DNA of 64,000 nt, taken from NCBI GenBank assembly GCA_049274915.1, contig JBASTN010000046.1, forward strand, positions 6,519-70,518. Direction: 5' to 3'. This stretch comes from Solirubrobacterales bacterium. GTDB lineage: Bacteria; Actinomycetota; Thermoleophilia; Solirubrobacterales; JACPNS01. Of this stretch, positions 7,052 to 47,065 are shown one piece after another. A model generated the notes under the pieces. It was not told the origin of the DNA and searched no databases. It saw only the letters and a list, made by a program, of their open reading frames with translations. The position numbers and the translations under genes were made by a program. Within the stretch, counting starts at the first letter, position 1; every line of letters begins with the position of its first letter.

Positions 7052-8311
7052 ATGGACGAAACAGTCGTCATGAAGTTCGGGGGGACGTCGGTCGCCGACG
7101 GCGAGCGGATCAAGAATGCCGCGCGCCGAATCGTCGCCGAGCACCAGAAGGGCAACCGCGTGGTCGCCGTGCTTTCGGCACAGGGCAAGACGACCGACGA
7201 ACTCGTACGCCAAGCGCAGGAGATCAGCGACCGGCCCGAGCCACGCGAGATGGACATGCTGCTTTCAACCGGCGAGCGGATCAGCTGCGCGCTCGCCGCG
7301 ATGGCGATCCACGACATGGGCCAGCAGGCGATCAGCCTGACCGGATCGCAGGCCGGCATTCTGACCGACGAGTCCCACACAAAGGCCCGCATCATCGATG
7401 TACGCGCCGACCGCATCAGTGACGCACTTGACGACGGCAAGATCGTGCTGGTCGCCGGCTTTCAAGGCGTATCTACCTCTTCCCGAGATGTCACCACGCT
7501 CGGTCGCGGAGGCAGCGACACCACCGCCGTCGCCGTCGCAGCAGCGCTGCACGCCGACGTTTGTGAGATTTACACAGATGTCGACGGCGTCTATAACGCC
7601 GACCCGCGCATCGTGCCCACCGCCAAGAAGCTGCCGGTCGTCTCCTTCGAGGAGATGCTCGAGATGTCCGCCAGTGGCGCAGGCGTGTTGCAGTTGCGCT
7701 CGATCGAATACGCCCGTAATCATGGAATCCGCATCCACTGCCGATCCAGTTTTCACGACGGCACAGGTACGCTTGTCGTCAGCGAAGAAGAGACCATGGA
7801 ACGCCCACTTGTGACAGCCGTGACGCACGCAACCGACGAAGCTCGGGTGACCGTGCGTGGCGTTCCCGACCGCCCCGGCGTGGCCGGCGATCTGTTCACC
7901 CGCCTGGCCGACTCGAACATCAACGTCGACATGATCCTCCAGAACGAGCCCGAGGGCGGCGACAAGCCGGCCGAGATGTCGTTCACCGTGCCGAAAGACG
8001 ACCTGCTGGCAGCCCTCGACACGCTCGAGGCGATGGGCGAGTTCCAGACGATCGACAAGAACGAAGAGATTGGCAAGGTCAGCGTGATCGGCGCGGGCAT
8101 GCGTTCGCACCCGGGCGTCGCCGCAAAGGTCTTCACCGTGCTCGGCGAACAAGGGATCAACATCGAAATGATTTCCACCTCGCCAATCAAGATTTCATGC
8201 ATCATCGCCGCCGACGCGGTACCGCAGGCAGTCAAGTCACTACACGACGCGTTTGACCTCGGTGTCGCCGTCGAGCAGGCAACCGGCGATCACCGGCCCG
8301 TGGCGCCATGA
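7052..8311 (+). CDS. ask: Aspartate kinase (with probable in-frame internal start for the ACT-domain beta subunit at 7796)
   Basis: [25 protein letters not shown] and two C-terminal ACT domains. An internal in-frame ATG at 7796 follows the purine-rich GAAGAAGAG. Confidence 0.95.
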
Positions 8312-9345
8312 GTCTGCGCGTTGCAGTAGTCGGCGCGACCGGTGTGGTCGGCACCCAGATGCTCGTGACCCTCGCCGAGCGCAAATTTCCTGCGACCGAG
8401 GTCGTGGCATTCGCCTCTGAACGCTCAGCCGGCAAGAAGGTGGCGTTTGACGGTGGCGAACTGACGGTCGTCGGGCTCTCCGAAGACTCAATCCGTGACT
8501 TCGACATCGCAATCTTCAGCGCCGGTGCATCAACCAGCGCCGACTGGGCGCCTCGCTTCGGCGCGGCGGGCGCGATCGTCGTCGACAACTCGTCGTACTG
8601 GCGGATGAACGAAGACATCCCGCTCGTCGTGCCCGAGGTCAACGCCCACGCGCTCGACTGCGTCTCGGTCGCCGGCCACAGCCGGATCATCGCCAACCCA
8701 AACTGCTCGACAGCACAGATGGTCGTGGTACTCAAGCCGTTACTCGACGCCGCCGGCATCGAGCGACTCGTGATCTCCACATATCAGTCGGTAAGTGGCA
8801 CCGGTAAGGCCGCGATCGATGAGCTGCGTGCCGAGGCCGCCGCTGTCACCGCCGGTGAGGATCCCCCCGCGCCAAACAGCTATCCGCACCAGATCGCCTT
8901 CAACGTCTTGCCGCAGGCCGGGTCATTTAAGGACAACGACCTATACACAGACGAAGAGCGCAAGCTGATCAACGAATCGCGCAAGATCTTCGAACTGCCC
9001 GATCTGCGGGTCACGGCGACTTGCGCCCGCGTGCCCGTCTTCGTCGGACACTCCGAGGCGGTCAACATCGAGACATCGACATCGCTGTCCGCGCAGCGCG
9101 CCACCGAGCTGCTCGCTCACGCACCCGGCGTACGCGTCGTCGACGACCCGGCAAATGCGCTCTACCCCCAGGCGATCGACGCCGAAGGTGAAGACGACGT
9201 CCTCGTCGGTCGGATCCGTGAGGACGACTCGCGCGCCAACTGTCTCAACCTCTGGATCGTCGGCGACAACCTGCGCAAGGGCGCAGCGCTCAACGCAGTT
9301 CAGATCGCTGAAGCATTGGTCGTTCGCGGCCTCTGCGGCAGCTAA
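8308..9345 (+). CDS. asd: Aspartate-semialdehyde dehydrogenase
   Basis: [11 protein letters not shown] Rossmann motif and [14 protein letters not shown] active-site Cys motif. Its ATGA overlaps the ask stop. Confidence 0.95.
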
Positions 9346-9392: not shown

Positions 9393-9617
9393 CTAGCCCG
9401 CGTACGCCCGCCAGTATGCACGCCGCTGCGGGGTGAGGCGCTCGGTCTGACGAATCGCCGGCATCCGCACTCCGATGAAGGCATCCCCTTCGCCGTACTC
9501 GCCCGGTCCGGTCTTGAAGAATCGCTGCAGAAATACCGCGTCTTCTGCGTTACCCAGTTGATCGAGCTCGCGTATGAGGGCCTTCGCTCCCGCGGGGTTG
9601 CTCTTATGCTCCGCCAT
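9393..9617 (-). pseudogene. DNA alkylation repair (AlkD-like) protein, N-terminal remnant only
   Basis: The 74-aa ORF begins like AlkD-family proteins ([32 protein letters not shown]), then diverges and stops. Only 47 nt separate it from the asd stop, so there is no room for the rest of a ~220-aa protein. Confidence 0.5.
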
Positions 9618-9647
9618 CTTCGATCGCCGCCAAACGCGGCCTGCGAT

Positions 9648-10046
9648 CTACTCCGCGCGGTCGAGGTTCGCCGTCGCGCGACGCAGACGTTCACGCGCCG
9701 CACCAAGCCGGTCGGCGATGTCGTCAGCAGAGATCGCGCCGGCCCTCGCGTCGTAAGCGGTGATCTCGTCTGCAGGCATTGCATCGCGAACGCTCCGCGG
9801 GACACGATGGTCGGAAGCAACGGGGTCGGAAGCAACGGGGTCGGAAGCAACGGGATCAGCTGTGTCGCGCGTGTCGCGCACAACGATCTCGCCGGCCGCG
9901 GCTTGTGCCTCGGCGTCGCGCTGCTTCAGCGGCGACGGTGCGATCGAAGCGAAGTCAAAGCCCGGGTGGACTTTCTCGCCGTGCTCTGCGCGAGCTGCGC
10001 TGGCGGCGATTACCTCTTCAAGCGTGGGGCGTCCAAGTGGCGACAT
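9648..10046 (-). CDS. Hypothetical protein containing 3x DPVAS repeat
   Basis: I place the start at ATG 10046 (MSPLGRPTLEEV...). The longer track ORF would extend into group II intron domains V/VI. No family recognised. Confidence 0.4.
   Translation of the reverse strand: MSPLGRPTLEEVIAASAARAEHGEKVHPGFDFASIAPSPLKQRDAEAQAAAGEIVVRDTRDTADPVASDPVASDPVASDHRVPRSVRDAMPADEITAYDARAGAISADDIADRLGAARERLRRATANLDRAE
9811..9855. repeat. 15-bp tandem repeat x3 (TCGGAAGCAACGGGG), in frame, encodes DPVAS x3
   Basis: Direct reading of the sequence at 9811-9855. Confidence 0.9.
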
Positions 10047-10153: not shown

Positions 10154-12034
10154 ATCGGGTAGGAGCCGGGCTCACCCCGGCTCCCCCCACACCACCTAGC
10201 ATGCGGGTCCGCACTAGGCGGTTCGCTCAACTTCCCGAAAACGTCGGTAGGGATTGACAAATCCCTTCAGTCCAAGCTGGTCCCAGTAGTCATTGGGCAG
10301 TGCCCGCTGGAGGACGGCGGTGCCTGCGATTCGCCAGTAGCCCTTGCGTGAGAGTGCCCATTGGTGAGCCTTCTCCTCGGGGATTCCCAGCGCTCGCAGG
10401 TTGCGGCGACGCGTGCGCCACCGCTTCCATTCCTTCCAGCGAACTTGCCGCAAGCGACGCCTGAGCCAGCTGTCGAGTGCGATGAACGGCGTAGGCGTAT
10501 CAGCCAACGAGAAGTAGGCCGTCCACCCAACCGTGAACTTGTTGATCTCACGAATGCGCCACCGCATCGAGACGCCCCACTTGCGAGAGGTCAGCTTGCG
10601 GATTCGAGCCTCGGCGCGCTTGCGCGCCTTGGGATCGATCCGCAGCTTGACCTCGCCCTTGCGGCGAAAGAAGCCGAACCCGAGAAAGGTTCGGCGTGTC
10701 GCCGGGGCAACCGCTGACTTGCTGCGGTTGACCTTGAGCCTCAGGCGTCCTTCGACAAACTGCGTTGTGCTGTCCATGACTCGCCCTGCCGCCCGTTTGC
10801 TGTTGACGTAAATCATCACGTCGTCGGCGTAGCGGACGAACTTGTGGCCGCGACCTTCCAGCATCCCGTCGAGGTCGTCGAGCATGATGTTGGCCAGCAG
10901 CGGCGAGAGCGGGGAGCCTTGTGGCGTGCCTTCCTCGCTTAACTGCTTGACCTCATCAACGACGACGCCTGCAATCAGGGACTGCCGGATTAGGCGCAGC
11001 ACTTGCTTGTCGGATACCCGTCTTGCAATCCGCGCCATCAGAGCGTCGTGGTTCACCCGATCAAAGAACGAATCGAGATCAAGATCGACGACCCACCCTG
11101 CGCCTTTAGCGATATGGCGACGAGCCGCCAAAACAGCGTCGTGCGCAGAGCGCCCGGGGCGAAAGCCGAAGCTTGCCGCCGAGAAGTGCGGATCGAACAC
11201 GGGAGTTAGCACTTGCAGAATGGCCTGCTGGATCAAGCGATCCAGCGCCGTTGGCACCCCGAGGCCCCGGCTTCCGCCGGCGGGTTTTGGGATCGTTACC
11301 CGCCGGACAGGTTCCGGCCTGTGGGTGCCCGCATTGAGCCGAGCACGAACGTCTGGCCAGTGCCGATGAAGCCACTGGCGCAGGTCATTGGTGCTCATCC
11401 CGTCGATGCCAGGGGCACCGGCGTTCTGCTCGACGCGTTTGAGTGCCCGCGCAAGGTTCTCGCGGGAAAGGAGTTCTTCCCACAGGTCGCTTGCATGGGC
11501 CGGGTCAGGCGTGGTCTTGCCCTGCGCCGGATTCTCGCTGTGCTCTTGGGCGGGGCGCGTTGGCTTCACCGCTGCGCCTTTCGCTCAAGGCTCCTTGCGG
11601 AGTTGGCTGCGTTGATTGCGAGATTCGCGAGCAAGGGCATCCTGTTCCTGTTGTTTTGCGTTCGGTCCTTCCCGGCTGTTGATCCCGCCGGTAATACGAC
11701 CTCTGCTGACTTCTCTGCGGCGAGCCGCGGCTTTGCAGCCACGGTTGTCATTTGACACCCGCAGAGATCTCCCGGGATAAGGCCAGACACCTTCACCGCA
11801 CTCCCGCCGCATCTACGTTGTGATCCCTTGATGGCATTGGGCTTCGTCGTGTTTGGCCGACTCGCCCGGATCACCCCGCCTTGTATGCGATTCGTGTTCC
11901 TCGGGTCGCGGATTCGCCTCGGGCTTCCTTCCCACCCCGCCTCGCGGCGACGCAGTTGCCTCTGACTTGTGGTTGGAGACATCATCCTCCACAGGGGACT
12001 TTCACCCCCGAGCGTCTGGTCATGCCCGGCGTAC
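10154..12034 (-). mobile_element. Group II intron, bacterial class C (IIC)-like, ~1.88 kb, with intron-encoded RT/maturase
   Basis: - 5' end: GUACGCCGGGCAUG at 12034, followed by GGGGGUGAAAGUCCCC, GAGGAACACGAA and AGAAGUCAGCAGAGGUC...GGGAAGGACCGAAC motifs.
- Domain V at 10222-10191: 9-bp lower helix with CGC and a G.U wobble, 4-bp upper helix, 2-nt 3' bulge.
- A GUG linker follows.
- Domain VI at 10187-10157: bulged A at 10160, 7 nt from the terminal GAU (10156-10154). Confidence 0.85.
10214..11569 (-). CDS. Group II intron reverse transcriptase/maturase (no endonuclease domain)
   Basis: 451 aa. It has RT motifs (GIDGMS, RRVTIPKPAGGSRGLGVPT, PQGSPLSPLLANI, YADDVMIYV) and a maturase/X-like C-terminus. 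It ends without an HNH region. Confidence 0.93.
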   Translation of the reverse strand: MKPTRPAQEHSENPAQGKTTPDPAHASDLWEELLSRENLARALKRVEQNAGAPGIDGMSTNDLRQWLHRHWPDVRARLNAGTHRPEPVRRVTIPKPAGGSRGLGVPTALDRLIQQAILQVLTPVFDPHFSAASFGFRPGRSAHDAVLAARRHIAKGAGWVVDLDLDSFFDRVNHDALMARIARRVSDKQVLRLIRQSLIAGVVVDEVKQLSEEGTPQGSPLSPLLANIMLDDLDGMLEGRGHKFVRYADDVMIYVNSKRAAGRVMDSTTQFVEGRLRLKVNRSKSAVAPATRRTFLGFGFFRRKGEVKLRIDPKARKRAEARIRKLTSRKWGVSMRWRIREINKFTVGWTAYFSLADTPTPFIALDSWLRRRLRQVRWKEWKRWRTRRRNLRALGIPEEKAHQWALSRKGYWRIAGTAVLQRALPNDYWDQLGLKGFVNPYRRFREVERTA

Positions 12035-12100: not shown

Positions 12101-13483
12101 CTACTTCTTGGCTGCGACCTTGCGCTTGGCGGGGGCGAGCTTGGCGGGGGCGCGTTTGGCGGGGGCGCGTTTGGCCGGTGCCGCCTTGCGCTTGACAGCG
12201 CTCGCGCGACCGGCGCCCGCCTTGGCTCGGGTTGCGCCGAGCTTCGGCTTGCCAGCGTTCATGGCGATGAACTTCTCGGTGTCGATGCGTGCCTGCGCGT
12301 CGGGGCGCTGGTTCTGCGGCGACTTCATCAGGTACGACGACGGTCCGTCGAGCTGACCGCTGATGCCGTTGTTGAGCGCGAGCTTGCACATACGCACTGC
12401 GTCGATCACGATGCCGGCGCTGTTGGGCGAGTCCCAGACCTCGAGCTTGAGCTCGACGTTGAGCGGCACGTCACCGAAGGCCTGGCCCTCGACGCGAATG
12501 TGCGCCCACTTGCGGTCGGTCAGCCACGGCACGTAGTCGCTCGGGCCGATGTAGACGTCGTCGGCCGGGAGCGTGTGCTCCATGATCGAGGTCACGGCAT
12601 TGGTCTTGGAGATCTTCTTGCTCTCAAGACGCTCGCGCTCGAGCATGTTGTAGAAGTCCATGTTGCCGCCGACGTTGAGCTGCGAGGTCTTGACCATCTT
12701 CACTCCGCGCTCGCCGAACAGCGTGGCCAGCTGACGATGAACGATCGTCGCGCCGACCTGGCTCTTGATGTCGTCACCGACGATCGGCAGGCCGGCCTTC
12801 TTGAAGCGCTTGTCCCAGTAGGGCTCGCGGGCGATGAACACGGGGATGCAGTTGACGAAGCCACAGCCGGCCTCGAGGATCTGCTCGACGTACCACTTGG
12901 TCGCGTCTTCGCTGCCGACCGGCAGATACGAGACGACTACGTCGGTGCGTGTGTCTTTGAGGATCTTGACGATGTCGGCAGTCTCACCGGGGGCCTTGGT
13001 GATCTTCTGCTTGAGGTACTTGCCGAGTCCGTCGTGGGTCATACCGCGCTCGACGGTTACGCCGAGCTTCTTCGGGACCTTGGCGAACTTCATCGTGTTG
13101 TTCGGGTCGGCCCAGATCGCCTCGCCGAGGTCTTTGCCGACCTTCTTGGCGTTGATGTCGATCGCGGCGGAAAACTCAATGTCGCTGATGTGGTATCCGC
13201 CGAGGTCGACGTGCATCAGGCCGGGGACATCCTGCGTAGCGTCGGCGTTCTTGTAGTACTCGACGCCCTGCACGAAGGCGCTGGCGCAGTTACCGACGCC
13301 GATGATCGCCACGCGGACTTTGTCGCTCTGGTAGCGGGCGGCGCCGTTTCCATTACGGGCGGCACCGTTACGGGCGGCGCCGTTCTTGACGGCACTTGCT
13401 GAAGTTGATTTGCGGGCGGCTGCGCTGGTGCGCGCCGCGCCATTTGACTTGTTGCTGCCGGACTTCTTGGGGGCAGGACTCAC
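12101..13483 (-). CDS. ino1: myo-Inositol-1-phosphate synthase with basic low-complexity N- and C-terminal tails
   Basis: The core [25 protein letters not shown]...[12 protein letters not shown]...[15 protein letters not shown]...[25 protein letters not shown] matches actinobacterial Ino1. The start is GTG at 13483, preceded by GGAAGGA. Confidence 0.9.
12126..12185. repeat. 15-bp tandem repeat x4 inside the ino1 3' end (encodes the APAKR-type tail)
   Basis: TTGGCGGGGGCGCGT-type units read directly from the sequence. Confidence 0.85.
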
Positions 13484-13734: not shown

Positions 13735-14418
13735 TCAGGCCGCGGCGGCGCGCTGCGCGTCGATCTTCTTGCTCTCGCGATAGACATGTGCGATGCGCTG
13801 GAACATCGTAAAGAGGCTGAGGCCGGCGAGCAGGTAGACGCCCGATTTCAGCAACGATACGTCGACGAGACCGCCCAGGCCGTTGGCAAAGAACAGCGCG
13901 ATCGAGATGATCACGACGCGTACAGCGCGGTTGGCGATCCCGACCTTGCACTCGATTCCGAGGGCCTCGGCGCGGGCGCGTGTGTAAGAGACCATCAGCG
14001 ACCCAAGCACGGCGAGCACGACCGCCGCGACTGCAACCTCGTCGTTGCCGGAGTAGACGCCAGCGTGTCCGGTGACGAACTGCATCGCGATCACCGTCAA
14101 AACGATGCCCTCTTCAATGCGGTCGAGCGAGCTGTCGAGGAAGGCGCCAAACAGCGTCGCCTTGCCGCTCATCCGCGAGTACTTTCCGTCGAGCAGGTCC
14201 ATGCATGAACCGAGCACGAAGGCGACGCCGGCGAGCACGTATAGCTGCTGCGTAACCAGCGCGGCGGCGGCGATGTTGCCGACTAGGCCGGTCATCGAGA
14301 TCGCGTTCGGCGTCAGACGCGAATCGATCAAACGGTTGCGCGCGGAGTCAGAGAGAATCTGGCCGCGCTGGCGATCGGGTGCCTGGCGATCGGGTGCCTG
14401 GCGATCGGGCGAGCTCAC
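13735..14418 (-). CDS. CDP-alcohol phosphatidyltransferase (phosphatidylinositol-phosphate synthase-like)
   Basis: Has the family motif DLLDGKYSRMSGKATLFGAFLDSSLDRIEEG (DGx2ARx8Gx3Dx3D type) and multiple TM helices. I prefer GTG 14418, which forms a GTGA overlap with the upstream gene stop, over the track start 14496, which would give an 82-nt overlap. Confidence 0.8.
   Translation of the reverse strand: MSSPDRQAPDRQAPDRQRGQILSDSARNRLIDSRLTPNAISMTGLVGNIAAAALVTQQLYVLAGVAFVLGSCMDLLDGKYSRMSGKATLFGAFLDSSLDRIEEGIVLTVIAMQFVTGHAGVYSGNDEVAVAAVVLAVLGSLMVSYTRARAEALGIECKVGIANRAVRVVIISIALFFANGLGGLVDVSLLKSGVYLLAGLSLFTMFQRIAHVYRESKKIDAQRAAAA
14371..14410. repeat. 15-bp tandem repeat x2.7 (GCGATCGGGTGCCTG), encodes DRQAP repeats at the N-terminus of the CDP-alcohol transferase
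   Basis: Direct reading of the sequence. Confidence 0.9.
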
Positions 14419-36391: not shown

Positions 36392-37438
36392 TCAGCAGTC
36401 GAAGATCCAGCACTTGTTCTTCTTGCCGCCGCCTCGCTGCTGATTCTTCTTGCCGCCGCCTCGCTGCTGATCGTCGCCGGAGGCTTGCTGCTGCCTATCG
36501 GCGGCCCGCTCAGCGGCAGCGCCGCCGGCCACCTTTCCGTTGGCGAACGCGTCGGAGCGCGCACGTGCCACACGGCGATCGGCCGAGGCGTCGAGTCTCG
36601 CTTTTTGTGCCTCAAGCCGGCGGGATGCCTGTGCCTGGTCGTAGCTGCGTTGCTGCGCCACGGCCTCGGCGATGCGATCGTTGACCGCAGAATCCGACGG
36701 GCGCACCAACATGCCCAACAGAAACGCTGCGGCCACGATCGGGAGAGTCGCGGCCAGAACAACTCGGACACGGCGATCTTGGTGCCACTGCTCGGCACGA
36801 CCGGTTGCGGTGGTGGCAGTTGCGGTGGCGGCAGTTGCGGTGGTGGCAGTTGCGGTGGTGGCGGTCGCGGTGGTCGATCCAGCGGCACGTGATGTGCGGG
36901 CCGACTGTCGCGACGGTTCAGCCGCCGCGGCGGCGGGCCGATCCGAAAACCGCGTGCCGCACCCGGGACACCACTGAGCATCGACCTCCCAGGCCAGCGA
37001 GCACTCCGGACAGACGCGCAGCGGCCCAATCTTGCGATCCGGGGTTTCGTGGTGACGACGCTCGACCGCCGGGTGATCCGATCGCGTCGCGTCGAGCAGT
37101 GTTTCGTCGGTTTTCTTCAAATCTCGGTCCTCAAGCGCAACATCATCCCATCTGAGGCCGGAAATCGGTCCAGTCGGCGTCAAACGCCTGGGATTCAAGG
37201 CAGCCGCCGACGTTACAGGCAGACCCGATGAAGTTACTGAGACGTAGGGACACTCTGACGACGAACGCACCAGCGGTGCGACACACCTGCACCTTCCACG
37301 CTCGCCAACGGCGATCACACGTTCCCGGCCGGCTGGTCGGCGAGCGGGCGGAACGCACCAGTATGCGACCGTGCCGACCAACGGCCATCGGCGTCCGACG
37401 GCACGAAAACCGCCGCACCCACGCTCGATACGCTGCAT
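36392..37438 (-). CDS. Hypothetical zinc-ribbon / single-TM / coiled-coil protein (start uncertain)
   Basis: CPECSLAWEVDAQWCPGCGTRF is a zinc ribbon. It is followed by a T/A repeat tract, a TM helix (VVLAATLPIVAAAFLLGML), a charged helical region, 2x QQRGGGKKN, and ends in CWIFDC. The N-terminal third of the track ORF is poorly supported. Confidence 0.5.
   Translation of the reverse strand: MQRIERGCGGFRAVGRRWPLVGTVAYWCVPPARRPAGRERVIAVGERGRCRCVAPLVRSSSECPYVSVTSSGLPVTSAAALNPRRLTPTGPISGLRWDDVALEDRDLKKTDETLLDATRSDHPAVERRHHETPDRKIGPLRVCPECSLAWEVDAQWCPGCGTRFSDRPAAAAAEPSRQSARTSRAAGSTTATATTATATTATAATATATTATGRAEQWHQDRRVRVVLAATLPIVAAAFLLGMLVRPSDSAVNDRIAEAVAQQRSYDQAQASRRLEAQKARLDASADRRVARARSDAFANGKVAGGAAAERAADRQQQASGDDQQRGGGKKNQQRGGGKKNKCWIFDC
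36427..36480. repeat. Perfect 27-bp tandem duplication (encodes QQRGGGKKN x2)
   Basis: TTCTTCTTGCCGCCGCCTCGCTGCTGA occurs twice, back to back. Confidence 0.95.
36804..36878. repeat. 15-bp tandem repeat x5 (GTTGCGGTGGTGGCA-type; encodes the Thr/Ala tract)
   Basis: Direct reading of the sequence. Confidence 0.9.
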
Positions 37439-37465: not shown

Positions 37466-37816
37466 ATGTCATCACCGTCTAACGCGCCAGGTAACGGGCC
37501 GGTCAACGGGCCGGTAAAAGCACAAGTTCTGATCCGCCCGAAGGCTGGAATCCTTGACCCGCAGGGCCAAGCCGTAGAGAGCGCCCTTCCGGCGCTCGGT
37601 TTCAGCGGCGTGGCGCACGTTCACGTCGGTCGGCTGGTCGAGCTTGAAGTCGACGATCCCTCGCAGCTTGACCAGATGTGCCAGCAGCTGCTTTCGAATC
37701 CGCTGATCGAGGACTACGAGATTCGGATCGAATCGGCCCGGTCGGCCAGCGATGTCACGGCCGGCGATGTCACGGCCAGCGATGTCACGGCCAGCGCCGC
37801 CGGTACCGAGGGCTAA
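37466..37816 (+). CDS. purS: FGAM synthase subunit PurS with repeat-bearing termini
   Basis: The core VLIRPKAGILDPQGQAVESALPALGF...LLSNPLIEDYEIRIE is typical. An N-terminal NGPV x2 and a C-terminal SDVTA x3 are extra to the ~80-aa core. Confidence 0.9.
   Translation: MSSPSNAPGNGPVNGPVKAQVLIRPKAGILDPQGQAVESALPALGFSGVAHVHVGRLVELEVDDPSQLDQMCQQLLSNPLIEDYEIRIESARSASDVTAGDVTASDVTASAAGTEG
37746..37790. repeat. 15-bp tandem repeat x3 (CCRGCGATGTCACGG) at the purS 3' end
   Basis: Direct reading of the sequence. Confidence 0.9.
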
Positions 37817-42374: not shown

Positions 42375-43595
42375 TTCACGACCAGCCTTATCGCGACTCG
42401 CCGCCCTGCGTGCCCAAGCGATCGACGGTTTCTCAACCGCCAGCCAGCTGAGCGCAGCAATCGGCAGGGTTGCTGCGAACACTAGAAGCGTCGCACCAAG
42501 CGTGCTGTCGGGCAGCAGCCCATACGAGCGCGCCCAGAGAATCAGCGGGATGTGCCACAGGTAGACGCCGTACGAGACCGACCCGAGCGCGACCAGCGGT
42601 CGAGACGCGAGGACGCGATTCACGCGCGAGGTCGGCGCCAGCGTAACGGCTGCGATCAGGCATGAGAATGCTGCTGCGGCCGGCAGATCGCGGACGATCT
42701 CGGAGCTGTAAGAGTGCGGAGCGCGCTCGTAGAACGCGATGCCCGCGACTAGAAGCGCGACGCCTGAGATCGCCAAGCCGGGTGCGAGGACGCAAAGCCG
42801 ACCAGTTGTCAGGTCGTGCCGGGCAAGGCTTTCGATCAGCAGCGCGGCGAGGATTCCGCAGGCGAAGTACGGCAGCATCGCGACCAGCGAAATCCGCGTG
42901 ACCGCTTCGGCACCGATCGTCTGCGCGTTCCACCACAGACCGAGGGCGATCATCGTGGCCGCGACCGCGACCGTCGCCGCGACCGCGAGTTGAGGCGCGC
43001 GCGAGCTTCGGCCTCGCGCTTTCGGACCGCCGCCGCCGCGCGCCGCCGCGATCACTGCCGCGCCGATCAGCGGTACAAGCAGATAGAACCCGAGTTCGAT
43101 CGGTAGCGACCAGGTCGAGGGGTTGAGCTTCATCAACGTTTCAGGCTGGAGATTCTGCGCAAAGACCAGAAACAACCAGCCGTCCTCTGCCTTGGGCATG
43201 TGTGCCCCCCCGCCGTCTGCCGCCAGCCACAGCAGTGCGACTGCACCGGCCAGCGACACGTAGTAGCCGGGAGCGATGCGGGCGATCCGGTGAAGGACGA
43301 ACGGTCCGATTGCCGGGATGCCGGTGCCGGCAAGCGCCGCCCGCAGAAACGGGCGCACCAGCAGGAAGGCGGAGAGAGCGAAGAACATGTACAGGCCCAG
43401 CCGAAGAGAAGCGAAGACAGTGTCAGCCGCGCTCTCGCGCACGAGCGTCGAGTGCGCTTCGCTGAACAGCCAGACGTGAAAGGCCAGGATCGCGACCGCC
43501 GCGAGGCCACGGATGCCGTCGACGGCGGCGTTGCGGGACTGGGCTGGATTCGAGTGCTCGGCCTGTTGAATGGTGGACGAGACCATTCGGCGCAA
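41931..43595 (-). CDS. Acyltransferase family 3 membrane protein whose ORF runs 444 nt antisense into purF
   Basis: N-terminal NAAVDGIRGLAAVAILAFHVW and about 10 TM helices extend to ...LSWLAVEKPSIAW (around 42400). After that the frame stays open through purF antisense until 41931. Confidence 0.7.
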   Translation of the reverse strand: MRRMVSSTIQQAEHSNPAQSRNAAVDGIRGLAAVAILAFHVWLFSEAHSTLVRESAADTVFASLRLGLYMFFALSAFLLVRPFLRAALAGTGIPAIGPFVLHRIARIAPGYYVSLAGAVALLWLAADGGGAHMPKAEDGWLFLVFAQNLQPETLMKLNPSTWSLPIELGFYLLVPLIGAAVIAAARGGGGPKARGRSSRAPQLAVAATVAVAATMIALGLWWNAQTIGAEAVTRISLVAMLPYFACGILAALLIESLARHDLTTGRLCVLAPGLAISGVALLVAGIAFYERAPHSYSSEIVRDLPAAAAFSCLIAAVTLAPTSRVNRVLASRPLVALGSVSYGVYLWHIPLILWARSYGLLPDSTLGATLLVFAATLPIAALSWLAVEKPSIAWARRAASRDKAGRELRRGRLSDREFFERELPLCPVRVGERVVAGEAGVAVVAAFAADGFVDALERDVGQRVGAELGGDLFDRASVGDHLLMRRHVDPVVAGVADRRRADTQVHLRRAGAAQHADDLARRVAAHDRVVDDDQALALDDLRQRRELHPQAELA

Positions 43596-43661
43596 GCTAA
43601 CCGGGGTCGGTCGGGAATGCGCCGGTTGTTCATCGGGGCTTAATGTGCGCCCTCGCGCGAC

Positions 43662-44267
43662 CTAGCCGCGGGAAGCCGAGGCCGGGCTCCACATCGCGCT
43701 GATCTCCCGACTGATTTGCTTTCGCTTTCGTTCGGCGAATCGCATGTGTCGGACATACCCCTCGACGGATCCAAATATCTCGCAGGGGAGATCAGGATCA
43801 AACCAATCGGATGATCGCCCTCCCGCGAAGAGGCGATGCGACGAGAATTCGTAGTCCTCAAACCGGTTCACGTGCCGAAGATCGAGAGGATTCAGATGCA
43901 CGTAAGCGATGGCGGTGCGGAGATAGTTCGCGTCGTCAATCCGGGCGGCCTTGAACCGGCCCTGAAAAAGTGTTCCGTACCGATCGTGTCGAGCGTTGAA
44001 TCTCCGGACGTACGACGTCAAAGCACTGTGCATCAGGCGCGCGATCGCATCCGATGACGTCTGACTCAGGATCAGGTGAAAGTGGTTTCCCATCAGGCAA
44101 TACGCGACGATCCGTGCGTCGATCCGATTGACGCGACAAGCGAACGAATCGAGAAACAGGTTCCGGTCATGGTCGTCCACGAAGATCCGCTCGCCATTTA
44201 CTCCGCGGTTGTACGCGTGGAACGTCGATCGCGGCAGATATTGCTTGACCGTGTTCGGACTCGGCAT
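43662..44267 (-). CDS. REP-associated tyrosine transposase-like (RAYT / IS200-type Y1 HUH transposase)
   Basis: YHxxNRG-like FHAYNRGVNGERIF, the HUH motif AYCLMGNHFHLIL, GTLFQGRFKAARI and the catalytic-Tyr region AIAYVHLNPL. Confidence 0.8.
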   Translation of the reverse strand: MPSPNTVKQYLPRSTFHAYNRGVNGERIFVDDHDRNLFLDSFACRVNRIDARIVAYCLMGNHFHLILSQTSSDAIARLMHSALTSYVRRFNARHDRYGTLFQGRFKAARIDDANYLRTAIAYVHLNPLDLRHVNRFEDYEFSSHRLFAGGRSSDWFDPDLPCEIFGSVEGYVRHMRFAERKRKQISREISAMWSPASASRG

Positions 44268-44363
44268 GCCTCTGTACTACACGACCGGAGCTCAACTCAA
44301 TCACCGATTCCACCAGTTTTCACGCTCTCGTAACGCTTTTGGCACAACCCCACAACTACCGCG

Positions 44364-44483
44364 CCTGTTTCGCATCTCAAGCCGCTCCCCAAGCCGCTCC
44401 TTAGGTCCGACCTTCGGAGCGGCTTGGGGAGCGGCTTTGTTTCACGGTGGGAGCGGCTTGGGGAGCGGCTTTGTTTCACGGTG
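44364..44483. repeat. Composite repeat: perfect 22-bp inverted repeat (15-nt spacer) plus 34-bp direct repeat x2, built from six GGAGCGGCTT 10-mers
   Basis: The left arm AAGCCGCTCCCCAAGCCGCTCC is at 44379-44400. The right arm GGAGCGGCTTGGGGAGCGGCTT is at 44416-44437. The unit GGAGCGGCTTGGGGAGCGGCTTTGTTTCACGGTG occurs at 44416-44449 and 44450-44483. Confidence 0.95.
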
Positions 44484-44604
44484 TGGAATCGCGGGGACGG
44501 TAGGCGGTGCGGGCATCTCCCGGCGCGGGGTCTCCCCGGCGGGGCGTCGAGGTCCGATCTGCGTGGGGCCATTCCGCCGGTGCGGGTCTTCTAGCTTCTT
44601 CCCC

Positions 44605-45276
44605 GTGAGAATCACCAGCGACAGCAGTCCCGGCGCGCAACCGACAATCCTCCGTGTCGCGATCCTCGCCTCCGGCGAAGGGTCGAACCTGCAGGCGATC
44701 ATCGACAGCGTGCATGGTCGCTACGGCGTCGAGATCGTCAGCGTCGTTTCGGACAAGCCGGAGGCGAAGGCCCTCGACCGCGCCGCGGCCGTCGGCATTC
44801 CAACCGCGACGTTCGCAAAGACCGACTACGAGTCGCGCGCAGCGCGGGACGACGCGATGGTCGACCACCTCAAGGCCGTCAACGCCAACCTTGTCGTCCT
44901 AGCCGGCTACATGCAGCTGCTCAGCCCCAACTTCATCGGCGCGTTTTTCGGGCGGATCATCAACGTGCATCCGTCGCTCCTGCCGGCGTTTCCCGGCCTT
45001 AACGCGATCCAGCAGGCACTCGACGCGGGCGACGACCACACCGGCGTTACGGTTCACTACGTCGACGAAGGCATCGACACCGGACCGCCGATCGCGCAGG
45101 AGATCGTCGAGATCGAGGCGAGCGACACGCACGACTCGCTCGCGGCGCGGATTCACGCGGTTGAGCATCGTCTGCTGCCCGAGGTGATTGCGCAGATCGC
45201 TATGGAGCGCGCGACCGCCACGGCCGCGGCCGCCTCCGCGCCTGCTCCACCGACCACTGAACGCGGGATCTCGTAG
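44605..45276 (+). CDS. purN: Phosphoribosylglycinamide formyltransferase
   Basis: VAILASGEGSNLQAII, VLAGYMQLL, INVHPSLLPAFPG and TGVTVHYVDEGIDTGP are present. I place the start at in-frame GTG 44605. The track ORF from 44128 overlaps the RAYT gene and the repeat array. Confidence 0.9.
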   Translation: MRITSDSSPGAQPTILRVAILASGEGSNLQAIIDSVHGRYGVEIVSVVSDKPEAKALDRAAAVGIPTATFAKTDYESRAARDDAMVDHLKAVNANLVVLAGYMQLLSPNFIGAFFGRIINVHPSLLPAFPGLNAIQQALDAGDDHTGVTVHYVDEGIDTGPPIAQEIVEIEASDTHDSLAARIHAVEHRLLPEVIAQIAMERATATAAAASAPAPPTTERGIS

Positions 45277-45373
45277 TGGCTAGCCGATATCGCGTATCCT
45301 GCCCGCTACTTGACCCCACCGCGCCCCGCGCTCTGAGTTCAACAATTTAAGCCTTCAGATATAAGCCTTCAGG

Positions 45374-45440
45374 CCTACCATTCGGACGTACCATCCCAGG
45401 CGTACCATTCCAGGCGTACCATTCCAGGCGTACCATTCAG
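45374..45440. repeat. Non-coding 14-nt tandem array (CGTACCATTCCAGG) of about 4.5 copies, ending at the purH start codon
   Basis: The units are a degenerate copy at 45374-45386, then 45387-45400, 45401-45414, 45415-45428, and a partial copy at 45429-45440. An 11-nt direct repeat TAAGCCTTCAG x2 precedes them at 45347-45372. Confidence 0.9.
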
Positions 45441-47065
45441 TGAGCGAATCCCAGCCACCATCAGCGCAGTCCCCGTCGCCAAAGGCCAACGGCCGAGCGG
45501 TCGAGGTCACCAACCCTGGGGCGGTACGTATCCGCCGGGCGCTGATCAGTGTTTCGGACAAGCGTGGCCTGGTCGATTTCGCGAAAGGCCTGCAGGAGCT
45601 CGGCATCGAGATCGTTTCGACGGGCGGCACCGCCAAGGAGCTTGCCGACAACGGCGTCAAGGTCACCGGAATCTCCGACTACACCGGTTCGCCCGAGATC
45701 CTCGACGGGCGCGTCAAGACCTTGCACCCCAGCGTCCACGCGGGACTGCTCGCCGTGCGAGACGATCCGGCCCACGTCAGCCAACTCAACGAGCACGGCA
45801 TCTCACCGATCGACCTCGTCGTTGTCAATCTTTATCCGTTTCAGCGGTACGCAAACCGCCGCGGCGCGACCGACGAGGAGATCCTCGAACAGATCGACGT
45901 CGGCGGACCGACGATGGTGCGTGCCAGCGCGAAGAACTGGAAGTTCACCGGCATCGTCGTCAACCCCGAGAGTTACGACGCTGTAATCGAGGAGCTCAGC
46001 GAGGACGACTGCATGCTCGGCTTGCAGACCCGCGAATCGCTCGCCGTCGACGCCTTTAACTACACGGCGCAGTACGAAGCCGCGATCAGCCAGTGGTTCA
46101 ACGAGCGCACCGGCAACGTGCCCGACCAGTTCGTGCGTGTCTACGAGAAGGCGATCGACCTGCCCTACGGCGAGAACCCGCATCAGCGCGCCGCCTACTA
46201 CGCCGAGGTCGGCTCGCGCACCGACCTGCTGGCGATGGTCGGTCAGGAGCAGGGCAAGGACCTCTCCTACAACAACTTGCTCGACCTCGACAGTGGCCGC
46301 CGCCTGATCGAGGAATTCGAACTGCCCTGCTGCGCGATCCTCAAGCACAACAACCCGTGCGGCATTGCGGTCAGCAACTCTGTCGAAGACGCCTACGACA
46401 AGGCGATCGCGACCGACCCGCTGAGCGCCTTCGGCGGCATCTACGTTTTTAACCGCGAAGTCGACGGCCAGCTCGCCGCGAAGCTGGTCGAGCACTTCGT
46501 CGAGATGGTCTTCGCGCCGTCTTACACCGGCGACGCTCGCCGCATCTTTAGCCAGAAGGAGAACCTCCGCGTGCTCGAGAACAACGAGCGCCGCCTCTGG
46601 CCGGTCAGCGACCCGGACCTGCGCGGCGTGCGCGGCGGCCTCTTGCTGCAGGACCGCGACGTCGACATCGATCCGCGCGACGCGATGCAGATCGTCACCG
46701 ACTCGCACCCGTCAGAGAAGCAGTGGGGCGACTTGTTGTTCGCGTGGCGCGTCTGCAAGCACGTGCGCTCCAACGCAATCGTGCTCGGCCGCGATCTCGC
46801 GACGCTTGGCGTCGGTGCCGGTCAGATGAGCCGAGTCGACAGCGTCAAGCTTGCGGTCAAGAAGGCGCGCGTTTCACTCGACGGCGCCGTGATGGCGAGC
46901 GACGCATTCTTCCCGTTCGCCGACGGCGTCGAGTTCGCGATCAAGGAAGGTGTCACGGCGATCATCCAGCCGGGCGGCTCCAAGCGCGACCCCGAGGTCG
47001 TAAAGGCCTGCAACGACGCCGGTATCTCGATGGTCTTCACCGGCCGTCGCCACTTCCGCCACTAG
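45440..47065 (+). CDS. purH: Bifunctional AICAR transformylase / IMP cyclohydrolase
   Basis: RRALISVSDKRGL, VSTGGTAK, GRVKTLHP, VVVNLYPF and the C-terminal IIQPGGSKRD are present. The only start codon after the upstream stop is GTG 45440. Confidence 0.95.
   Translation: MSESQPPSAQSPSPKANGRAVEVTNPGAVRIRRALISVSDKRGLVDFAKGLQELGIEIVSTGGTAKELADNGVKVTGISDYTGSPEILDGRVKTLHPSVHAGLLAVRDDPAHVSQLNEHGISPIDLVVVNLYPFQRYANRRGATDEEILEQIDVGGPTMVRASAKNWKFTGIVVNPESYDAVIEELSEDDCMLGLQTRESLAVDAFNYTAQYEAAISQWFNERTGNVPDQFVRVYEKAIDLPYGENPHQRAAYYAEVGSRTDLLAMVGQEQGKDLSYNNLLDLDSGRRLIEEFELPCCAILKHNNPCGIAVSNSVEDAYDKAIATDPLSAFGGIYVFNREVDGQLAAKLVEHFVEMVFAPSYTGDARRIFSQKENLRVLENNERRLWPVSDPDLRGVRGGLLLQDRDVDIDPRDAMQIVTDSHPSEKQWGDLLFAWRVCKHVRSNAIVLGRDLATLGVGAGQMSRVDSVKLAVKKARVSLDGAVMASDAFFPFADGVEFAIKEGVTAIIQPGGSKRDPEVVKACNDAGISMVFTGRRHFRH

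Follow-up and report, generated by a model that had tools for sequence, protein, structure and literature searches.

A Y1 (HUH) endonuclease gene beside purN-purH in a Solirubrobacterales bacterium and the palindrome that is probably its cognate hairpin

The DNA analysed here, referred to as the window, is a stretch of 64,000 nt from a Solirubrobacterales bacterium (GCA_049274915.1, contig JBASTN010000046.1, positions 6,519 to 70,518 of the forward strand). It carries a gene for a 201-aa Y1 (HUH) protein that is divergent from purN, and an array of inverted and direct repeats lies upstream of this gene. On balance, the locus is probably a long-resident, vertically inherited gene for a class 2 Y1 (HUH) single-stranded DNA (ssDNA) endonuclease, accompanied by the palindrome of its family. 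The evidence likewise favours reading the array as the cognate hairpin of the Y1 enzyme, kept on one side of the gene only, and not as a dispersed repetitive extragenic palindrome (REP) or the end of an insertion sequence (IS). This reading was reached by sequence comparison, because the core of the array is conserved near the Y1 gene in close relatives and the same type of palindrome recurs across phyla. The array is most likely homologous to the palindromes found around and within the Y1 genes of these relatives. An earlier reading of the window's letters (the original prediction) had offered two possibilities, a different RAYT substrate architecture or a co-opted regulatory array for purN. 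The conservation of the core in close relatives and in other phyla bears out the first, insofar as the repeat structure belongs with the Y1 gene as an atypical, substrate-like architecture, and the second is less probable.

The Y1 gene and the parts of the array are located as follows.
43662-44267, minus strand: gene for the Y1/HUH endonuclease, 201 aa (open reading frame list, Pfam Y1_Tnp)
44379-44400: Y1-side arm, two units at a 12-nt period, with AAGCCGCTCC
44403-44413: core palindrome AGGTCCGACCT, the hairpin tip, with its centre at base 44408
44416-44437: purN-side arm, two copies of GGAGCGGCTT, 100% complementary to 44379-44400
44438-44449: 12-nt tail TGTTTCACGGTG, which reads CACCGTGAAACA on the Y1 sense strand
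44450-44483: exact second copy of the 34-nt unit (arm and tail), a tandem duplication on the side distal to Y1 (period 34, 2.0 copies, 100% matches)
44550-44560: degenerate second core AGGTCCGATCT with one mismatch, 45 nt before the purN start and possibly a relic

The 10-mer GGAGCGGCTT occurs as six exact copies, two on the minus strand (44379 and 44391) and four on the plus strand (44416, 44428, 44450 and 44462), in the inverted and direct arrangement originally described. The expected number is 0.24 (dinucleotide-shuffle mean), six copies were reached in none of 100 shuffles, and three copies of the 22-mer made of two units are present against an expectation of none. Since the two 22-nt arms are complementary at every position, the predicted perfect 22-bp inverted repeat is present, and its 15-nt spacer, TTAGGTCCGACCTTC, is the mini-hairpin that had been described as its loop; the whole is best described as one 59-nt near-palindrome (44379-44437) centred on base 44408. 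Folded as ssDNA, the segment 44365-44495 gives a stem of 22 bp, then a 2x2 internal loop and a second stem of 4 bp closed by a 3-nt loop, with an energy of -43.2 kcal/mol (z = -7.5; opposite strand, z = -7.05). The 34-nt unit, GGAGCGGCTTGGGGAGCGGCTTTGTTTCACGGTG, whose tail is CGTGAAAC, stands at 44416-44449 and again at 44450-44483 with 100% identity, confirming the 34-bp direct repeat. The array begins 112 nt and ends 216 nt upstream of the Y1 ATG, in agreement with the first estimate of about 110-215 nt, and neither GTAG nor GTGG is found at the foot of the 44379-44437 palindrome, so that the reported lack of a GTAG-type head also held. No further copy of the 10-mer, the 22-mer or the exact core was found elsewhere in the 64-kb window, and no related repeat was found 3' of the Y1 stop codon in the window, the repeats being upstream only. 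An Rfam search of the whole window at gathering thresholds returned neither a riboswitch nor another known RNA in the intergenic region, and a search of 43500-45600 at permissive E-values returned chance-level matches on the palindrome only.

Comparison with close relatives (loci designated by L numbers) revealed which part of this structure is conserved. The sequence AGGTC[CG]GACCT is present without mismatch upstream of the Y1 gene in every close-clade locus whose sequence extends that far, and the core columns are invariant in two close-clade alignments. Its centre lies at -141 from the Y1 start in the window, L006 and L092, at -139 in L001, at -162 in L088 and at about -165 in L007. The arms on either side are built of units with a 12-nt period, whose sequence is lineage-specific and changes on both sides together. 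The units are:
Window: GGAGCGGCTT
L088: GGCGGGGCTT
L001: GGCGGGACTT
L006: GGAAGGACTT
L092: GGAAGGGCTT
L089: GGAAGGGGTT
L007: copies of the core itself

The 10-mer by which the array had been defined is therefore real, but it is a lineage-specific arm unit, and the conserved part is the core that had been taken for the loop. When six lineages are aligned without gaps, 85.7% of the cells of the arms are paired and 10 of 28 pairs have changed on both sides. The covariation score is 0.376, a value reached in 0 of 500 shuffled alignments (0.172 in the shuffles), and sliding the partner gives 0.03-0.13. Four of the six lineages have a mismatch at one position at the base of the core stem.

Extra direct copies, where present, are always distal to the Y1 gene (window, L001, L006 and L088). 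In the window this distal array is the 34-nt unit in two copies, in L001 it is a run at 9396-9731 with a period of 83/84 nt (approximately 7 x 12), in L006 a 59-nt unit in three copies at 2086-2261, and in L088 a long run of 12-nt units at approximately 1515-1675. The palindrome of L006, with about 150 nt of the sequence following it, is present as two direct copies (20-190 and 2284-2460) that lie 2.3 kb apart and bracket rpiB-glyA, the first running straight into rpiB. The assemblies of L003 and L089 both end inside the core palindrome, at position 1. Because two independent assemblies stop inside the core, it is suggested that the inverted repeat breaks short-read assembly, and the element may be under-represented in metagenome-assembled genomes (MAGs).

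The protein encoded by the gene is a member of the Y1 transposase family. It matches Pfam Y1_Tnp (PF01797) with 34.1 bits (cut-off 23; E = 3.4e-8), as expected from the original description of a 201-aa HUH/Y1 protein with HFHLIL and YVHLNP motifs, divergent from purN. No variation was seen at the HUH motif H62-F-H64, at the catalytic Y122 or at N126-P127, either among 12 clade members or among 52 wider homologues. The context of the tyrosine, Y122-V-H-L-N126-P127, is the Y---NP signature that defines class 2 of the TnpA-Y1 family (PMC6006769). From the translation and the clade alignment the motifs NHFH, FQ (as LFQG), YVHLNP and the SS motif YEFSSH were read, and the published motif set of subclass 2.1 is NH[YF]H, FQ, Y[IV]HLNP and a proximal SS motif (PMC6006769). 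By its motifs, the protein thus fits subclass 2.1, which corresponds to RAYT Group 1 (PMC5581495). The C-terminal helix-turn-helix (HTH) extension (Bac_DnaA_C, HTH_23 or HTH_28) was searched for in residues 140-201 and gave no Pfam match, even at E = 1. Outside the clade, some of the nearest relatives are proteins of approximately 290-320 aa whose tails resemble DnaA_C or HTH_28, as is typical of subclass 2.1, and C-terminal domains resembling Bac_DnaA_C/HTH_28 are seen in the relatives P0049 and P0036.

An AlphaFold2 model of the Y1 protein (mean confidence, pLDDT, of 93.1) was compared with solved structures, and the top match was 4ER8, the Escherichia coli TnpA-REP protein with a REP hairpin (E = 1.3e-7, template modelling (TM) score 0.69). 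The ISDra2 and IS608 TnpA proteins came next at about 1e-4, and the top 17 matches were all Y1 transposases. A sequence-profile search of the PDB gave a marginal match to ISDra2 TnpA only (E = 0.04) and 4ER8 did not appear, so that the relationship to TnpA-REP was revealed by the fold search alone. The NCBIfam equivalog REP_Tyr_transpos (NF047646) scored 58.9 bits, under its cut-off of 80. The protein had originally been called RAYT-like; this stands insofar as its fold is nearest to TnpA-REP, and has to be qualified insofar as its motifs are those of subclass 2.1 and the NF047646 score is under the cut-off. The closest protein (P0001, 99% identity) is annotated from a Solirubrobacterales MAG, and homologues are annotated as RayT in their source databases. 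Searching with the clade profile gave 38,360 clusters at E <= 1e-3, only four of them at approximately 1e-60 or better, and the immediate clade is therefore rare. A PHROGs search gave nothing useful.

The position of the gene is shared with its relatives. In L001/L002, in L003-L005 with L007, and in L088, the order is purS-purQ-purL-purF, one variable gene, and then the Y1 gene divergent from purN-purH. In the window the purF-purN interval holds two genes, an Acyl_transf_3 gene and the Y1 gene, as determined from open reading frames (ORFs) and Pfam. The Y1 orthologues of three other lineages occupy this position with 48-57% identity, while neighbouring genes at the same locus show 87-90% (purH), 89% (purF) and 77-79% (purL) identity. 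A second syntenic class has the Y1 gene just after glyA (L006 and L092). Among orthologues the ratio of nonsynonymous to synonymous substitution rates (dN/dS) for Y1 is 0.10-0.33, with dS saturated. The G+C content at third codon positions (GC3) of the Y1 gene is 0.70 compared with 0.79-0.88 for its neighbours, and a similar offset is seen in the orthologues. Because diverged orthologues are syntenic and dN/dS is 0.10-0.33, sequence comparison indicates that the gene is old in its present position and under purifying selection. The view that it had been inserted between purF and purN is correct as to location, but the syntenic orthologues at 48-57% identity speak against a recent insertion. 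The Y1 gene of L006 has an in-frame TAG at 2913-2915, and the conserved C-terminal peptide ERNRKRLTREVSALW continues in frame beyond it; this could reflect a pseudogene, read-through or a sequencing error.

Metagenome contigs were scanned with the clade alignment, giving 80 loci of distant relatives with 30-42% identity and 32-63% G+C, of which 60 non-redundant loci, belonging to other phyla, were analysed. The scan pattern included the N-terminal peptide MPSRN, and what is said here of the palindrome therefore holds for that sub-clade only. Of 60 loci, 47 have the sequence AGG-N5-CCT, usually as (C)AAGG-N5-CCTT(G), within 150 nt upstream of the gene, and 40 of 58 have it no more than 100 nt past the stop codon. 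AAGG-N5-CCTT has a density of 3.5 per kb over the 200 nt upstream of the gene and of 0.18 per kb elsewhere. Among loci the inner bases and the outer arms vary, but the two sides of any one locus match, and locus-specific 21-mers are identical upstream of, inside and downstream of the gene in, for example, L059, L071, L072 and L086. The cassette of the wider clade is compact (approximately 0.75 kb), with a matching pair of palindromes at its ends and the promoter in the left one. The original observation that the repeats are on one side only is true of the window clade and does not extend to the wider clade, which is bracketed, as the downstream copies show.

In 24 of 59 loci the centre of the palindrome lies 18-30 nt before the ATG. 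In these 24 loci a TTGACA- or TTGCAA-like hexamer is fused to the left arm, and a TAnAAT-like hexamer lies beyond the palindrome and is followed after 6-9 nt by the ATG, which would place the palindrome in the promoter spacer of a leaderless transcript. About 17 of the 60 loci have in-frame copies of their own flanking palindrome within the Y1 ORF, often identical over 21 nt (L012, L014, L028, L032, L033, L034, L042, L044, L054, L055, L059, L061, L066, L071, L072, L078 and L086). These copies cluster within nt +162 to +196 and nt +446 to +488, the two hot spots, and encode short loops such as TLQGSTFKG and KNRSDLSKK, the one in L014 being a dimer. No such insertion was found in the Y1 protein of the window. 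Extra matching copies 0.4-2.2 kb from the gene were found in L014, L019, L021 and L074, and the 20.6 kb around L093 contain the two flanking copies only. One 848-kb contig carries two paralogues that are 84% identical to each other and are therefore not IS copies.

Clustering of the flanking ORFs of the 80 distant loci gave no conserved neighbour, with no family in more than 4-6 loci. By their N-termini, compared by eye, neighbours in L008, L019, L023, L065 and L070 resemble genes of DNA repair or topology, namely RuvB, RuvA, TopA, UvrA and UvrB, some of these loci being from the same organism. The Y1 locus L095 (Candidatus Berkelbacteria), whose protein is without the MPSRN N-terminus, has a different palindrome with GTGTAGG on both sides of the gene (8030-8150 and 8815-8880). 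To judge from the sequences compared, every clade appears to have its own flanking palindrome.

The region between the two divergent genes also contains the following features.
44274-44279, minus strand: -10-like hexamer TAGTAC, 6 nt before the Y1 ATG, read from the sequence
44316-44334, minus strand: GTTACGAGAGCGTGAAAAC, the window form of the GTGACG(A)/CGTGAAAAC motifs, in the stretch from the palindrome to the Y1 promoter
44592-44597: -10-like hexamer TAGCTT of purN, read from the sequence
44605-45276, plus strand: purN (glycinamide ribonucleotide (GAR) formyltransferase), the divergent neighbour, with a GTG start (Pfam Formyl_trans_N, E = 1.4e-61)

The purN start is most likely the GTG at 44605 and not a codon at or before 44604. 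A TAnnnn hexamer lies 7-8 nt before the start codon in all eight close-clade Y1 loci, and both the Y1 and the purN transcripts are probably leaderless. The palindrome is centred 141 nt from the start codon of Y1 and 197 nt from that of purN, and probably lies outside both likely core promoters. These promoter statements are based on hexamers identified by eye, as a strict scan of 43500-44750 for consensus sigma-70 promoters and terminators found nothing. In the stretch from the palindrome to the Y1 promoter, GTGACG has a frequency of 12.4 per kb (8 loci) compared with 0.48 per kb in the window, an approximately 25-fold difference, and is present in seven of the eight close-clade loci. Motifs of the GTGACG(A)/CGTGAAA(A)C type are found in the window at 44316-44334, 44438-44449 and 44472-44483, and also in L001, L006, L007 and L088-L092; the tail of the 34-nt unit, read on the Y1 sense strand as CACCGTGAAACA, is related to them.

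On the cognate-hairpin reading, only the upstream copy remains in the Solirubrobacterales-like lineage, approximately 140 nt before the start codon, and its stem has been lengthened to 22-27 bp by 12-nt units evolving jointly on both arms. In the mechanism proposed, the palindrome would be extruded as a hairpin or cruciform, the single-stranded state being provided by replication or by negative supercoiling where the Y1 and purN promoters diverge. A Y1 dimer would then bind the hairpin, as TnpA-REP does with REP and IS608 TnpA with its end hairpins, and the enzyme may nick and rejoin the DNA beside it. The direct copies on the purN side could have arisen locally, as by-products of slippage or of strand transfer by the enzyme. 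The analysis shows the anatomy, conservation, covariation, synteny, fold and purifying selection; binding and cleavage by the enzyme, extrusion of the cruciform and the way in which the duplications arose are inferred, the first two by analogy with known Y1 enzymes.

Several observations weigh against the cognate-hairpin reading, or limit how far it can be taken. The covariation rests on six sequences, the palindromes of L001 and L007 (two of the six in the close clade) are imperfect, and a perfect DNA palindrome can be maintained by gene conversion instead of selection. The MPSRN N-terminus is found in only 20 of 147 best cluster representatives, which counts against any family-wide claim. 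We infer the pairing of palindrome and protein from their co-occurrence; the palindrome is one-sided in the window clade, and a cleavage or guide motif could not be identified. Both close-clade contexts are folate/purine genes (purN-purH and glyA), a regulatory hint that this reading leaves unexplained. The array may also be dispersed at low copy number in the source genome beyond the 64 kb.

The palindrome could instead be a transcriptional control element for the folate/purine genes, bound by a transcription factor or by a domesticated Y1 protein without cleavage. It lies within the region shared by the divergent Y1 and purN genes, and the only two close-clade contexts both involve folate-dependent enzymes, purN-purH in the window, L001/L002, L003/L007 and L088, and glyA in L006 and L092. 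Moreover, the second palindrome of L006 with its 150 nt is directly before rpiB-glyA, and in AT-rich relatives the palindrome stands between the -35 and -10 hexamers of the Y1 promoter, a classic operator site. However, this type of palindrome accompanies Y1 homologues in unrelated genomes without a common theme among the neighbours, and an operator does not explain copies that follow the stop codon or lie in frame within the gene. In the window, the centre is beyond the likely core promoters on both sides, no riboswitch or other RNA family was matched in the region, and the HUH and tyrosine catalytic residues are strictly conserved, which mere DNA binding would not require. A control element is thus considered unlikely.

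A second alternative is a classical RAYT/REP (REPIN) system, in which the GGAGCGGCTT palindrome would belong to a family dispersed throughout the genome and mobilised by this enzyme, and the copy beside the gene would be the usual REPtron. The fold nearest to TnpA-REP, the RayT annotation of homologues and the low copy number and vertical inheritance of the gene, as in RAYTs (PMC5581495), all agree with this, as do the two palindrome copies of L006 and the extra copies at 0.4-2.2 kb in L014, L019, L021 and L074. It appears quite improbable nonetheless, given that no other copy of the 10-mer, 22-mer or core is present in the window, and that no true extra copy is present in 20.6 kb of L001 or in the 20.6 kb around L093. 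In approximately 116 kb of close-clade sequence no dispersal was seen except for the L006 duplicate, and a search of 185,579 species genomes for the core-plus-two-units pattern gave one locus, beside an orthologue. Moreover, the foot of the palindrome carries no GT[AG]G head in the window or in relatives, NF047646 scores under its cut-off, and the motifs are those of subclass 2.1, near whose genes no REPs were found (PMC6006769).

The locus might also be the immobilised remnant of an IS200/IS605-like element, the palindrome being a former left-end hairpin that is now functionless and the right end having been lost. The wider-clade cassette of approximately 0.75 kb with IS-like palindromes at both ends suggests such an origin, and the missing downstream copy in the window clade, the in-frame TAG of L006 and the low GC3 of Y1 (0.70 against 0.79-0.88) would fit. 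Decay is made less likely, however, by the dN/dS of 0.10-0.33 and the invariant catalytic residues across orthologues that are only about 50% identical, and by a core that is conserved together with its spacing while the arms show compensatory change. The signature is Y---NP and not the Y---Q of IS200 (PMC6006769), the paralogues on the 848-kb contig are only 84% identical, and no tnpB is present, so that a functionless remnant is rated as a poor prospect. Finally, the idea that the repeats are a replication-slippage by-product unrelated to Y1 is scarcely credible, for although the window has many short tandem arrays of period 12-15, including a 14-nt unit in five copies before purH, most of these have a period divisible by three and lie inside ORFs, none is palindromic, and slippage leaves the conservation of the core between lineages and phyla unexplained.

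The cognate-hairpin reading can be compared with systems already described. The window protein resembles subclass 2.1, the second largest subclass, present in approximately 15% of surveyed strains (PMC6006769), in its NHFH, LFQG, YVHLNP and YEFSSH motifs, in its low copy number and in the DnaA_C/HTH_28-like tails of its relatives, and differs in being 201 aa long with no detectable C-terminal HTH; the placement in this subclass is by motifs. No REP-like sequences were found near 2.1 genes by automatic or manual search (PMC6006769), whereas a conserved palindrome accompanies the window gene. The E. coli TnpA-REP/REPtron (YafM with REP/BIME sequences, 4ER8) is the top structural match and shares Y---NP, a single-copy resident gene with a cognate palindrome, and a presumed action on ssDNA hairpins. 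Unlike it, the window has no GTAG head, no dispersed copies in the available sequence and a one-sided repeat, its stem is much longer, perfect and made of 12-nt repeats, and the proteins are only 19% identical.

TIRYT genes, which form TIRtrons, are tyrosine transposase genes flanked by non-GTAG inverted or self-complementary repeats that are mostly confined to the flanks (PMC3733652), and most TIRYTs have been equated with subclass 2.1 (PMC6006769). The palindrome before and after the gene in the wider clade fits this description, but the TIRtron motif GGGGWSAS is not conserved here (the window has GGGGAGCG, matching at 7 of 8 positions, and relatives show no match), the repeat of the window clade is one-sided, and the AAGG-N5-CCTT core, the copies within the ORF and the stems of 12-nt units are not described in PMC3733652. 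IS200/IS605 elements (IS608, ISDra2) have the same HUH/Y1 fold and an upstream hairpin that overlaps or adjoins the promoter, and a downstream hairpin as in the wider clade. In contrast, the window is without Y---Q, tnpB, identical copies and a right-end hairpin, and its syntenic position is conserved. Subclass 2.4 RAYTs, with the motifs WQ and YIxNNP, have REPs inserted in frame in their own gene (PMC6006769), like the approximately 17 of 60 distant relatives with their own palindrome in the Y1 ORF; they differ in their motifs and in that the window protein has no insertion.

Non-GTAG repeats flanking RAYT-like genes (PMC3733652) and in-frame REPs in subclass 2.4 (PMC6006769) are therefore already known. 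A full-text literature search for the core sequence found no relevant publication. No published description was found of the AAGG-N5-CCTT palindrome, its link to a sub-clade with 2.1 motifs or its position in a promoter spacer, nor of stem extension by 12-nt units with compensatory change or of long residence beside purN-purH.

Other repeats were noted elsewhere in the window. The purN-purH spacer (45370-45438) holds five copies of the 14-nt unit CAGGCGTACCATTC, ending 2 bases before the purH GTG at 45440, and the orthologous spacer of L007 is without this repeat. Arrays of period 15 with 3-5 copies overlap ORFs at 9809-9854, 12122-12175, 14368-14409, 36804-36874 and 37743-37796, often near gene ends, for example just before the stop codon preceding purQ, and the genome seems prone to short in-frame duplications. 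Membership of the Y1 array in a genome-wide class of 12-15-nt tandem arrays was considered and rejected, as those arrays mostly have a period divisible by three, lie in ORFs and are non-palindromic. Group II intron domains were identified by Rfam on the minus strand at 11665-11951 (RF02001, 136.6 bits; RF01998, 58 bits), and the 451-aa ORF just downstream on the same strand (10214-11569) is presumably the intron-encoded protein.

Subclass 2.1 proteins have previously been without a known DNA partner or function. If the cognate-hairpin reading is true, the AAGG-N5-CCTT hairpin would be a candidate substrate for one sub-clade, and the palindrome would be one that copies itself into and around its own gene. 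The locus would then be a natural case of a gene that is fixed in position, with approximately 50% divergence between orthologues and its hairpin kept, as expected of a domesticated enzyme. The recurrence of folate-dependent purine genes as neighbours is a lead to a cellular role, and there is a small chance that the link to purine/one-carbon metabolism is real. As an outside chance, the Y1 protein and its single long palindrome could form a domesticated device acting on the neighbouring folate/purine genes. In such a device a cruciform extruded by supercoiling would be bound or nicked by Y1, setting purN-purH expression or the local repeat copy number, and in sister lineages rpiB-glyA would be affected likewise through the second palindrome copy before the operon. 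If true, this would be the first physiological role for a subclass 2.1 Y1 protein.

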